Of a stretch of DNA of 61,891 nt, positions 10,251 to 14,841 are shown one piece after another. This DNA is from Thermoplasmatales archaeon SG8-52-3. GTDB lineage: Archaea; Thermoplasmatota; E2; DHVEG-1. The stretch lies in assembly GCA_001595915.1 (NCBI GenBank), contig LSSG01000053.1, positions 69,416 through 131,306 of the forward strand, given 5' to 3'. The notes under the pieces were generated by a model, which searched no databases, had not been told where the DNA came from, and was given only the letters and a program-made list of their open reading frames with translations. Made by a program: the position numbers and the translations under genes. Each line of letters begins with the position of its first letter. The first letter of the stretch is position 1.

Positions 10251-11708
10251 TTAAAATGTAGAGCTATTTTTATGTATCAGGTTTCTTATATATAATTTAC
10301 CCCAAGAAAATGATATTACTGAACCAGTTAAGTTTGCAATTACAATAGACCACCATAACCCAATTAATCCTGCTTTAAAAACAAACGTGGAAATCAATGC
10401 AAGAACAATTGTTAGGACAATAGTTCGAAGAAGGGTTGCTATAAGAGAATATATTCCCTTACCTGTTCCTTGAAACATTGCAGATGAGGAAATACCAAAT
10501 GCTGCTCCAGGATAAAAAAAGCAGGAAATTTGTAAAAATATCACTAAATCTGGCCTTATTATTATATCCTCAGGTCTTGATGTAAAAACAGTTGAAATAA
10601 AGGGAGCTAAGAAAAAAATCACTATTGCAAGAATTATTTCAACAATTAATCCAGTTTTTGCAGCATACATATAAGCTGTATTTAATTTATCATAAGATTT
10701 TGCTCCAAAAGCAGCACCAGTTACAGAGACTACTGCTGTTGCCACACCAAGTAATGGAAGTATTGCAATCATAACAACTCTCCAACCTGTATTATAAATT
10801 GCTACTCCATTCTCACCATTACCTGCAATTCCAATTATTATGATGATTGCAATCATTGTAATAGACATTGACAATTGTTGAAAAGATGCAGGAAGACCAA
10901 CTTTAAAAATATCCTTTAAAATTTCTTTATTGAATTTAAACTCATTAAATTTAAAAGAAACATATGTATCTTTTCTAAAAAACAACCAATATACAAGGAT
11001 AAAAGATGCCAATGCAAAAGAAAGTATGGTTGCATAAGCAGCACCAACAACTCCCATTCCAAAAGTGTAAATAAAAATTGGATCAATAATAATATTTGTT
11101 ACTGCACCAACCATCATAGCATACATAGCTCTATTTGCATCACCTTCACTTCTTAATATTGCAAATGCAATATTTGAAAAAAATAAAAAAATGCTTCCAG
11201 AAAATATTACCCTACCATAGGAAATTGCCATATCGGCTGTTCTTTCTGCACCAATTATAATAAATAGAGAATCAGCAAATAAAAATAATAAAATTGAAAA
11301 AACAGATGCAATTATAAGTGTGAGTACAATAGAATGAATTGCTACATTATCAGCACCCTTTTTATCATCAGCTCCAATACGTCTAGAAATTGCTGCTCCA
11401 CTACCAACACCAACACCTACAGCAATAGATATTATCATCATATAAAATGGCATTACAAAACCAACTGCTGCTAGAGCATCAATTCCAATATTAGAAACCT
11501 CAGAATTTGTAAAAAAATCTTTTCCAAAACCAGAAACCCAAAGAGCATCAATTAGATTATAAATTGTTGTAGCAGACATTGCAATTATCATTGGTACAGC
11601 TAGTTTCATAATTGCTTTTTTTGGATCCCCAAGTAAAGTTTCGACTCCTTTTGTTTTTGAAGAATCATTTTTTCTAGAATTAGACTGTGCTACCACCTTC
11701 AGCGTCAA
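10251..11708 (-). CDS. MATE family efflux transporter
   Basis: LLGDPKKAIMKLAVP, LRSEGDA, DPIFI..GVVGAAYAT, GLPAS motifs; about 12 hydrophobic segments. True start may be a few codons downstream. Confidence 0.92.
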   Translation of the reverse strand: MTLKVVAQSNSRKNDSSKTKGVETLLGDPKKAIMKLAVPMIIAMSATTIYNLIDALWVSGFGKDFFTNSEVSNIGIDALAAVGFVMPFYMMIISIAVGVGVGSGAAISRRIGADDKKGADNVAIHSIVLTLIIASVFSILLFLFADSLFIIIGAERTADMAISYGRVIFSGSIFLFFSNIAFAILRSEGDANRAMYAMMVGAVTNIIIDPIFIYTFGMGVVGAAYATILSFALASFILVYWLFFRKDTYVSFKFNEFKFNKEILKDIFKVGLPASFQQLSMSITMIAIIIIIGIAGNGENGVAIYNTGWRVVMIAILPLLGVATAVVSVTGAAFGAKSYDKLNTAYMYAAKTGLIVEIILAIVIFFLAPFISTVFTSRPEDIIIRPDLVIFLQISCFFYPGAAFGISSSAMFQGTGKGIYSLIATLLRTIVLTIVLALISTFVFKAGLIGLWWSIVIANLTGSVISFSWGKLYIRNLIHKNSSTF

Positions 11709-11754
11709 TAGTAAAGTTTATTTCAACTTTTTGGTTAAAAACTTTTTAAAAAAT

Positions 11755-12231
11755 ATGATTAAACAAATAATTAAAATTGGAGAGAAATAACCTGATTTTT
11801 GTCTTCCAGATCAAGATGAAAAAGAGATATGTTTAAGTAATTATAAAGGAAAAAATATAGTTTTATATTTTTACCCAATAGATAATACTCCAGGTTGATC
11901 ACTTGAAGCAATGATTTTTACAAAATATAAAGACGAATTTGAAAAACTTAATACTACGATACTTGGTATAAGTAAAGATAGTTGTGATTCTCATAAAAAA
12001 TTTATTGAAAATAAGAAATTAAATATTACTTTGATATCTGATAAAGAAAAAGAAATTCATAAAATATATGGTGTTTGGCGACTTAAGAAATTTATGGGAA
12101 AAGAATTTTTTGGTACAATTAGAACCACTTTTTTAATAGATAAAGAAGGAATAATAAGGACAATATGGGATAATGTTAAAGTAAAGGGACATGTTGAAGA
12201 GGTTTTTGAAGAGGTTAAAAAATTAAAATAA
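11755..12231 (+). pseudogene. bcp: BCP/PrxQ peroxiredoxin interrupted by TAA (11788-90) and TGA at the peroxidatic Cys (11896-98); pseudogene or recoded gene
   Basis: Single frame from ATG 11755: MIKQIIKIGEK*PDFCLPDQD..VLYFYPIDNTPG*SLEAMIF..GISKDSCDSHKKF..RTTFLID. The ORF track shows only the part after the TGA. Confidence 0.8.
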
Positions 12232-12283
12232 AAATATGTGTCACCCATATCCTTTATATATAACTTTTCTATTCCGACTTCTA

Positions 12284-12667
12284 ATGGCACTTTGGCAAGG
12301 TGACTCTAAAAGGAGTAAAACAGGTAGAAGAATTCGTTACGCACGTGGAAAAAGAAAATTTGAGATAGGTCGAGAAAGACATTTAACAACAATTGGTTCT
12401 ACTACACTTAAAAATGTTCGGACAAAAGGTAACAATAGAAAAATTAGAGTAAAAACAACAAATATTGCTTATGTAGTCGATCCGAATAACAATAAAACTA
12501 CTAAAACAGATGTAATCTCTGTTGTGGAAAATAAAGCAAATATCCACTATGTACGAAGAAATATAATAAACAAAGGTGCAATTATTGAAACAAAACTTGG
12601 GAAAGCAAAAGTCACCTCAAGACCTGGCCAATATGGTACAGTGAACGCTGTACTTCTTTCTAAATAA
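12284..12667 (+). CDS. rps8e: 30S ribosomal protein S8e
   Basis: MALWQGDSKRSKTGRR..RPGQYGTVNAV; start set to ATG 12284. Confidence 0.97.
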   Translation: MALWQGDSKRSKTGRRIRYARGKRKFEIGRERHLTTIGSTTLKNVRTKGNNRKIRVKTTNIAYVVDPNNNKTTKTDVISVVENKANIHYVRRNIINKGAIIETKLGKAKVTSRPGQYGTVNAVLLSK

Positions 12668-12683
12668 ATTGTAGTGATTATTT

Positions 12684-12959
12684 ATGGTCTCCAGAGGAGA
12701 TGAAAAGTACGTTGTTTGGCCTATCTATTTTGATATTTCAGTTTCAAGACTTGCAGGTAGAAAGGTTTCTAAAAAAAATGCTGTAGATAAACCAAATGTT
12801 GAAAATATTGCAAAAGCAGCAAAATCTTTGAAATTAAATCCAGTAATTGAAAAAGATTGTAGTCATCCTTCACGAAATTGGAGAAAGGAAGGTCGAGTAC
12901 TGATTGATAAAAAAGATTTAAAAGGTAAACTTTTAAGACAAATTGCAAGTCGATTATAG
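12684..12959 (+). CDS. srp19: Signal recognition particle protein SRP19
   Basis: VWPIYFD..SRLAGRKVSK..HPSRNW..GRVL; adjacent to rps8e. Confidence 0.93.
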   Translation: MVSRGDEKYVVWPIYFDISVSRLAGRKVSKKNAVDKPNVENIAKAAKSLKLNPVIEKDCSHPSRNWRKEGRVLIDKKDLKGKLLRQIASRL

Positions 12960-13174
12960 TGCTTTTAAAATTGTAAGTTTATTAAGTAATGATTGTTAAG
13001 TTAATTGTTTAATTTTAAAATGTTTAACCTTAATATTAAAAATAAATGTTATCATGACACATAATGACATTTAAAATATTATGATAAATAATGTCTAGCG
13101 TTGTATTGAAAATATGATAGATACTATTTAGCATGCGATATGCTTATAAATTATAATTCGCTTAGAAAAATTTG

Positions 13175-13987
13175 ATGGATGCAGAATCAGTTAAAGCAGC
13201 AATTTATACTAGAGTATCAACTGAGGATCAGGCAAAAGAAGGTTTTTCACTTGATGCTCAACTTGACAAACTACGATCTTATTGTAAAGCAAGAGATTGG
13301 ATTGTATCTGAAGAATATGTAGATGATGGATACTCAGGTCGAAATATCAAACGTCCTGCTTACAAAAGAATGATGGCTGAAATGGAAAAATGGGATTTAC
13401 TTTTAGTAATAAAAATGGACAGGATACATAGAAATCAGAAAAATTTTATGTTAATGATGGAACTTCTAAATAAAAATGAAAAAGAATTTGCCTCCATGAG
13501 TGAATCCTTTGATACATCCACAGCCATGGGTCGTTTTGTAATGAATATAATACAGGGTATTGCACAATTAGAATCTGAACAAATTGGAGAACGTGTTTAT
13601 GCATGCATGGAACAAAAAGCAAAAACTACAGGAGGTGTGCTAGGTTTTAACATACCATATGGTTATAATTATTCAGATGGAGAATTGATTATAAATGAGG
13701 AGGAAGCTACTGTTATAAAAGATATATTTTCTGAGTATAAAAAAGGTCGAAGTATGGGTAAAATTGCAAAAATGCTTAATTCTACAAAAATTCCAACAAA
13801 AAAGGGGGGGTTATGGGCAAAAAAGACTATTTCAACGATATTAAAAAATTCGACCTACTGCGGATACCTTCATTGGAAACAATATGTAAATAAAAGTGAT
13901 CATGATCCAATAATTCAAAAAGATGAATTCAATCAAATTCAAAATTTAATTGAAAGTAAGGGTGGTTCTCCCAAAAAAAGGTTATGA
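13175..13987 (+). CDS. Serine site-specific recombinase (resolvase catalytic domain + recombinase DNA-binding domain)
   Basis: AAIYTRVSTEDQ, DDGYSG, DRIHR, PYGY motifs; 270 aa, lacks zinc-ribbon/coiled-coil part. Confidence 0.9.
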   Translation: MDAESVKAAIYTRVSTEDQAKEGFSLDAQLDKLRSYCKARDWIVSEEYVDDGYSGRNIKRPAYKRMMAEMEKWDLLLVIKMDRIHRNQKNFMLMMELLNKNEKEFASMSESFDTSTAMGRFVMNIIQGIAQLESEQIGERVYACMEQKAKTTGGVLGFNIPYGYNYSDGELIINEEEATVIKDIFSEYKKGRSMGKIAKMLNSTKIPTKKGGLWAKKTISTILKNSTYCGYLHWKQYVNKSDHDPIIQKDEFNQIQNLIESKGGSPKKRL

Positions 13988-14003
13988 AACCATCCTTTTT
14001 TTA

Positions 14004-14029
14004 GTTACCTTTGGACTACCGAAGGTAAC
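14004..14029. repeat. Inverted repeat between the two recombinase genes
   Basis: GTTACCTT-tggactaccg-AAGGTAAC (8-bp arms), preceded by a T7 run. Confidence 0.6.
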
Positions 14030-14091
14030 CCTAAGTAATAATAAAATATAAATAATATTTCTCAGATACATGGAAAAGTCATATATTTGAG

Positions 14092-14841
14092 TTGTTTCAA
14101 ATGTCAAAATATAGAGTAGCATTCTATATTAGGGTAAGTAAAGGTGAACAAACAAAAGGATATAGTATAGATGGACAAAAATCTACTTTAAAATTATGGG
14201 CTGAAGAGATGAATTGGAAATGGGTTAAGACTTACTTCGAAGAAGCAAGTGCTAAAGATCCAGATAGGGAGAAATTCCAGGAGATGATTACTGATGCTAA
14301 AAATGGTCTTTTTGATGGAATTTGTATTGTTGATAGTGATAGATTTAGCAGATCAACAAAAGATCTCCTTAATATAATGGATGATTTAATGAATTATAGA
14401 GTAAAACTTCATATACATAACCTACAACATATTGATATCTATAGTGTACAGGGAAGATTTACACTCACAAATTTAGCAGCATTTAGTGAATTTTTCAGGA
14501 AACAATTGGCATCTAAGATTCGTGCAGGTGTAAAACAAAAAATGAAAAATGAATGGTTTGGTCAGGCTCCATATGGTTATTCCATTTTATCTGATACAAA
14601 AGGCAGTCGAAAAGTAAACACAAGACTTATAAAAAATCCTGAAGAACAAGAAGTACTTAAACATATGAAAAATTTAAGAGAATTAGGTAAAAGTTATAGT
14701 GAAATTGCTGATGCACTAAATAAAGATGGAATTCCAACTAGATATACAAAGGAAGATAAAAAAAGCAGTTGGTATTCAACAACAGTTAGAAATATCCTTA
14801 TGAGAGGTGAAATTAAATTAATATTGAACAAAAAATATTGA
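14092..14841 (+). CDS. Second serine site-specific recombinase
   Basis: FYIRVSKGEQ, EEASA, DRFSRS, APYGY motifs; TTG start at 14092 or ATG at 14101. Confidence 0.88.
   Translation: MFQMSKYRVAFYIRVSKGEQTKGYSIDGQKSTLKLWAEEMNWKWVKTYFEEASAKDPDREKFQEMITDAKNGLFDGICIVDSDRFSRSTKDLLNIMDDLMNYRVKLHIHNLQHIDIYSVQGRFTLTNLAAFSEFFRKQLASKIRAGVKQKMKNEWFGQAPYGYSILSDTKGSRKVNTRLIKNPEEQEVLKHMKNLRELGKSYSEIADALNKDGIPTRYTKEDKKSSWYSTTVRNILMRGEIKLILNKKY

Follow-up and report, generated by a model that had tools for sequence, protein, structure and literature searches.

Within the archaeal DNA analysed here, a stretch of 61,891 nucleotides that we refer to as the window, we found a gene frame for a peroxiredoxin of the BCP/PrxQ type (prx) in which a TGA codon stands exactly at the place of the peroxidatic cysteine. 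An in-frame TGA at a catalytic cysteine is the classic signature used for selenoprotein discovery, and the initial annotation had accordingly suggested a selenocysteine (Sec) or readthrough peroxiredoxin or a decaying relic of one, with an ordinary pseudogene as the fallback. The evidence favoured the fallback. The gene is very probably an ordinary pseudogene of recent origin, derived from a thioredoxin-dependent BCP/PrxQ peroxiredoxin, and the stop most likely came to lie on the catalytic cysteine codon by chance.

We propose that two single-base nonsense mutations inactivated prx, TCA to TAA at codon 12 and TGC to TGA at codon 48, the latter happening to fall on the peroxidatic cysteine codon, where a single change turns TGY into TGA. 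A ribosome starting at the original ATG would then stop after 11 residues and, with no canonical start codon ahead of the TGA, a product bearing the active site would not be made. The loss would have been tolerated because the locus is dispensable in this lineage and a paralogous peroxiredoxin that may compensate is retained. The prx DNA would thus still be awaiting deletion, unlike in sister genomes.

A peroxiredoxin frame with two nonsense codons

The prx frame covers positions 11755-12231 on the forward (+) strand. It comprises 158 codons, the same length as its orthologues, contains two nonsense codons and no indels, and shares 85% identity with P0001, an intact syntenic orthologue. Its translation reads MIKQIIKIGEK, a stop, PDFCLPDQDEKEICLSNYKGKNIVLYFYPIDNTPG, a second stop and SLEAMIFTKYK...EEVKKLK before the terminal stop, and the active-site context around codon 48 is FYPIDNTPG-stop-SLEAMIF. 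With the stops entered as X, the frame matched positions 1-123 of the 124 in Pfam PF00578 (AhpC-TSA) at E=3.9e-35. NCBIfam NF006960 'thioredoxin-dependent thiol peroxidase' scored 147.1 bits (cut-off 140). The family models therefore recognised the full domain. By contrast, the peroxidatic cysteine of the PxxxTxxC motif is missing, codon 48 being TGA, and the frame is not uninterrupted from its start codon, as TAA at codon 12 is followed by no canonical start. With the catalytic cysteine and the open frame both lost, defining features of a functional BCP/PrxQ member have failed, and prx is, judged from its sequence, a descendant of this family and not a functional member. The description of the peroxiredoxin frame as intact around both stops was confirmed by the frame itself, the two family models and the alignment at Cys48.

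For comparison we used the best 120 of thousands of intact homologues from a collection of 5.8 billion proteins. These were 69-85% identical to prx, 154-207 aa long and annotated 'peroxiredoxin Q/BCP', with length and domain order as in the window frame. Codon 48 (TGA, 11896-11898, +) aligned with an invariant cysteine in all 120 of these nearest homologues, none of which was interrupted there, and a codon alignment showed TGC, TGC and TGT at this position in the three syntenic intact orthologues. Codon 12 (TAA, 11788-11790, +) corresponded to alanine in 119 of the 120; the sole exception was the nearest relative, P0001, which encodes serine. The codons of the three syntenic orthologues were TCA, GCA and GCA here. 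As TCA at codon 12 and TGC at codon 48 are attested in orthologues, each stop of the window lies one base change away. Neither stop was shared with any of the 120 homologues or the syntenic orthologues. The closest intact orthologue sits on record SMTZ1_10002753 of JGI sample 3300002052.

Two residues near the active site had also been singled out as unusual, PID in place of PKD and MIF in place of xDF. The first is a true departure: the residue encoded by ATA (Ile42, 11878-11880, +) falls on a position that is 97.5% conserved as Lys or Arg and at which Ile was never seen among the 120 homologues, and it is one of several replacements specific to the lineage of the window's genome. The second is normal for the subfamily and so does not reflect decay, since the alignment of the 120 homologues gave C-S-L/M-E-A-M-x-F after the cysteine, with x variable and without a resolving cysteine at +5.

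Compared with the Bcp-type BCP/PrxQ of E. coli (NF006960, PF00578), prx retains a full-length match and the P-x-D-N-T-P-G-[C] context, but it is broken by the TGA at the peroxidatic cysteine codon and by TAA-12. The E. coli type carries CTxxAC with its +5 resolving cysteine, whereas the subfamily of the window gene has CSLEAM without it and has further invariant cysteines at positions 16, 26 and 77. This archaeal BCP subfamily hence shows four invariant cysteines (C16, C26, C48 and C77) and lacks the usual +5 resolving cysteine. C77, in an S-K-D-S-C motif on helix alpha3, could be the resolving cysteine, and C16 and C26 make up an additional pair near the N-terminus.

The longest open reading frame left is 106 aa long (11911-12231, +) and represents the C-terminal two thirds of the protein without the active site. 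We looked up this exact ORF in a public gene catalogue holding records from JGI, ENA and Logan, and found it called as a gene on five other contigs: JGI 3300027917 (96.7 kb), ENA ERZ27279932 (117.9 kb), JGI 3300001855, and Logan SRR6207735 and SRR6207736. All five matched the window with 0 mismatches over 558-582 nt within 11709-12290, including TAA-12, ATA-42 and TGA-48. These assemblies were made with different assemblers (JGI, ENA MEGAHIT, per-run Logan) from at least several datasets, although some may share reads, so that their independence is not guaranteed. Two of the contigs show differences from the window at two further positions and are therefore not copies of one consensus. An exact-pattern scan of a collection of metagenome contigs, from which records close to the window's genome may be missing, found no further copy of the TGA context.

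These records bear on the possibility that the organism has an intact gene and both stops are consensus errors, which the initial annotation had named as an outcome that would overturn its reading. The window belongs to a fragmented metagenome-assembled genome (MAG; G000) of 84 contigs, 1.9 Mb and 30% G+C that is about 79% complete, and errors are conceivable in such an assembly. However, both stops recur identically in the five other assemblies from different samples, which makes assembly error unlikely. Both defects are moreover substitutions and not homopolymer indels, and the G000 branch carries an excess of real amino-acid replacements. Overall, we regard a sequencing or assembly artefact as very improbable. 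The 106-aa ORF called by several pipelines would then be a pseudogene fragment, for which annotation as a peroxiredoxin is unwarranted.

Selenocysteine and readthrough

If UGA-48 were recoded as Sec at the peroxidatic position, prx would resemble bacterial PrxU and the peroxiredoxin-like selenoproteins of archaea. In favour of such an enzyme, the TGA lies exactly where the homologues have their catalytic cysteine, Sec/Cys pairs at the peroxidatic site are a known pattern, and the remainder of the frame is well conserved. We therefore searched all four genomes of the genus (G000-G003), among them the closed 1.82-Mb chromosome of G001, for the machinery of Sec decoding. In these four genomes SepSecS (TIGR03531) gave 0 matches, and PSTK (TIGR03574) reached at best 34 bits against a cut-off of 290.5, with no match in G000. 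The best SelD scores (TIGR00476) were 81-90 bits against a cut-off of 125 and belonged only to relatives from the AIR synthase superfamily. For tRNA-Sec (RF01852) the best score, 36.1 bits, stayed below the gathering score of 47; the G000 matches that were checked, on contigs C24 and C18, were ordinary tRNA-Cys and tRNA-Arg according to ARAGORN, which also reported no tRNA with the anticodon TCA. Each of these searches returned control genomes above the cut-off, in the case of SepSecS and PSTK the single genome of Methanocaldococcus jannaschii, so the searches were able to detect the machinery. Although G000 is only about 79% complete, the closed G001 likewise lacked the tested components.

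The remark that a convincing SECIS element is absent proved correct. Searching Rfam at E<=10 yielded no SECIS match, a test of limited weight because Rfam may hold no archaeal SECIS model, so that folding mainly carries the test. Compared with shuffled sequences, neither the region after the TGA (z = +0.34) nor the 55-nt 3' spacer (z = +1.38) nor the 5' region (z = +0.82) folded better. The PrxU selenoperoxiredoxin model NF040737 scored 66.2 bits, far from its cut-off of 270.

Of the selenoprotein features tested, prx thus shows a single one, the in-frame UGA aligned with the cysteine of its homologues. Neither UGA in orthologues nor a mixture of Sec and Cys among close relatives was found. 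What prx shares with PrxU (NF040737) and the archaeal peroxiredoxin-like selenoproteins is a UGA at the peroxidatic cysteine position of a thioredoxin-fold peroxidase; it differs from them in its low PrxU score, in its Cys-encoding orthologues, in the extra TAA, and in that neither SECIS nor Sec machinery was found. Likewise, the in-frame UGA is the sole likeness to the archaeal Sec-decoding system (tRNA-Sec, PSTK, SepSecS, SelD, aSelB and a 3'-UTR SECIS), the tested components of which are absent from the genus.

Sec decoding in archaea has been described for methanogens, Lokiarchaeota, Sifarchaeia, some Bathyarchaeota and one species of Archaeoglobi, and peroxiredoxin-like selenoproteins are listed for archaea (PMC9499178). 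Thermoplasmatota are mentioned in the same work for pyrrolysine only (PMC9499178). In prx, a Sec route would furthermore have to cope with the TAA at codon 12, downstream of which no canonical start precedes the TGA, and with only 55 nt between the prx stop and the next gene, rps8e. To our knowledge TAA is a Sec codon in no system. Taking together the tRNA-Sec, SepSecS, PSTK and SelD scores below cut-off in four genomes, one of them closed, and the cysteine encoded throughout the 120 nearest homologues and the syntenic orthologues, we rejected Sec recoding and attach a vanishingly small probability to a Sec peroxiredoxin. The proposal of the initial annotation thus failed on both of the comparisons it had itself suggested, with TGY at codon 48 in the relatives and a genus in which none of the tested Sec components reached its family cut-off.

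A different route to a working enzyme would be leaky or programmed readthrough of both UAA and UGA by near-cognate tRNAs, for example with Cys or Trp inserted at UGA, or a truncated product made by re-initiation. The fully kept frame and length and the low pairwise dN/dS (see below) are compatible with this, as are the in-frame ATA codons at positions 25, 35 and 42. Yet the ribosome would have to pass two different stops, neither of which is followed by a structure or occurs in any orthologue. A scan of the frame between TAA-12 and TGA-48 found no ATG, GTG or TTG, and we rejected rescue by a downstream start, as translation begun at one of the three ATA codons would be halted by the TGA ahead of the active site; the catalytic cysteine is also absent from the 106-aa ORF. 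In addition, sister genomes have independently destroyed the locus, which is hence dispensable. We consider maintenance of function by readthrough or re-initiation highly improbable. The chance is just as slight that some active enzyme arises by low-level misreading of UGA-48 by tRNA-Cys or tRNA-Trp, or through an unrecognised Sec-like route of MBG-D Thermoplasmatota that needs no canonical machinery. We also discarded an alternative genetic code: read with table 11, the window is densely filled with long ORFs, and the terminal TAA of prx is shared by the intact orthologues.

The outcome is mainly a negative result. It illustrates that a plain pseudogene can mimic the signature of a selenoprotein, and it removes a false lead for the use of selenocysteine in Thermoplasmatota.

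Age of the probable inactivation

Pairwise dN/dS between prx and its intact orthologues ranged from 0.08 to 0.15 (0.09 to the nearest) at a dS of 0.8-1.2, which points to purifying selection for most of the history of prx; the pairwise values, 0.06-0.15 overall, are dominated by the long shared history, and a young pseudogene and a live gene are inseparable by them. We therefore counted changes on the terminal branches instead. By crude parsimony the G000 branch carried 18 non-synonymous and 19 synonymous changes, compared with a sum of 23 and 61 on the branches to the two intact sisters (odds ratio 2.5, Fisher p=0.036). This is a modest sign of relaxed constraint on the G000 branch. At the 83 alignment columns with a conservation of at least 90%, the G000 frame departed 4 times, including the stop at codon 12 (read as K); intact homologues departed 1.6 times on average and 7 times at most.

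The well-preserved sequence would be expected if the gene was inactivated very recently but also if it still functions, and sequence alone does not separate the two. The lack of indels and the unchanged length imply that an inactivation would have been recent. Three Lys to Ile replacements specific to the G000 lineage arose by AAA to ATA changes at codons 5, 42 and 104, and other replacements in the G000 gene also went towards Ile or Phe (M54I, L91I, L151F and M119F). This pattern suggests a mutational bias from A to T, or enriching T, that may act on relaxed sequence.

The intact orthologues contain 67-69 codons that are one step from a stop, with 82-85 single-base routes to a stop, a single one of them at codon 48. 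For two random nonsense hits, the probability that codon 48 is among the codons struck is therefore about 2.4%. The position of the stop on the catalytic cysteine codon is thus a mild coincidence, and an unremarkable one because the finding was selected for this very feature from a very large scan.

Recurrent loss at a conserved locus

The locus was compared between relatives by its neighbouring anchor genes, together with a tree of the concatenated Rps8e, SRP19 and MATE proteins. Named relatives of prx and its neighbours were MAGs labelled 'uncultured Thermoplasmatales archaeon' or 'Thermoplasmatota archaeon', and the host appears to be an uncultured member of the Thermoplasmatota, a sediment archaeon that is MBG-D/Thermoprofundales-like. 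Upstream of prx lies the gene for a MATE efflux transporter (10251-11708, -), which is divergently transcribed from prx. The short intergenic region between them (11709-11754) serves as promoter region for the MATE gene as well, and relatives lacking prx still retain its core, TTTATTTCAACTTTTTGGTTAAAAA. Downstream, a spacer (12232-12286, +) contains the promoter-like TATA region of rps8e, CCTTTATATATAAC, and shows no SECIS-like fold. Relatives conserve this spacer whether or not they have prx. It is followed by rps8e and srp19 (12287-12959, +) as the downstream anchors.

Intact copies of prx were found at this locus in two metagenome contigs (L117 and L119), which fall inside the genus-level clade of G000-G003 and have the gene order MATE-prx-rps8e-srp19, and in genome G013. 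Other relatives have lost the gene in different ways. G001, the closed genome of the same genus and sister of the intact L119, retains only the first 36 codons (MNKQKIKIGDNAPDFCLLDQNLEEICLSNFKEKNVIKK, then a stop). In G003 prx is cleanly deleted, and the promoter motif on the MATE side and the rps8e promoter lie about 77 nt apart. G005, from another genus, has a gap of about 230 nt and no prx. In G008, a member of the same family, prx is split over two contigs after FYPK by inserted DNA that encodes a tyrosine integrase of about 450 aa with a Cys-rich, zinc-ribbon-like tail at its end. A 13-nt direct repeat, ATTTTTATCCAAA, is present at both junctions of this insert, which looks like an integrative element with its attachment site inside the prx coding sequence. 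These cases amount to at least four independent inactivations at the locus besides that of the window gene.

Since the locus was destroyed independently in sister genomes, prx is dispensable there. G000 also encodes an intact paralogous peroxiredoxin on contig C19 (active site PLAWTGIC, 38-41% identical), which is present in G001-G003 too. This paralogue plausibly explains why the loss was tolerated and might compensate for it. The locus provides a small example of a dispensable antioxidant gene that is lost repeatedly and independently at a fixed position, by nonsense mutation, truncation, deletion and an insertion bearing an integrase.

Several further observations were made at and around this locus. 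In G001 (L022, 4417-4965) some 440 nt of AT-rich DNA without similarity to prx separate the prx stump from the conserved rps8e promoter. The two parts of the split gene in G008 lie at the end of contig C27 (L023, 2866-3032) and on contig C32 (L024), where the inserted DNA stands upstream of the C-terminal part of prx; the junction on the element side supplies an in-frame TTG followed by ...HFYPKDNTPGC. G003 further contains a P-loop kinase-like frame (C55, 9416-9991) with an internal TGA and TAA and a weak match of 31 bits to the PSTK model, which is probably another pseudogene. In the window itself, srp19 is followed by tandem serine recombinases of 271 and 249 aa with Resolvase and Recombinase domains (13172-14841, +). 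The related contigs L117, L118, L120 and L121 keep the two genes in this order; the copy in G002 is 82% identical, that in G001 only 26%. The pair therefore appears to be resident in part of the genus and not to have arrived recently.
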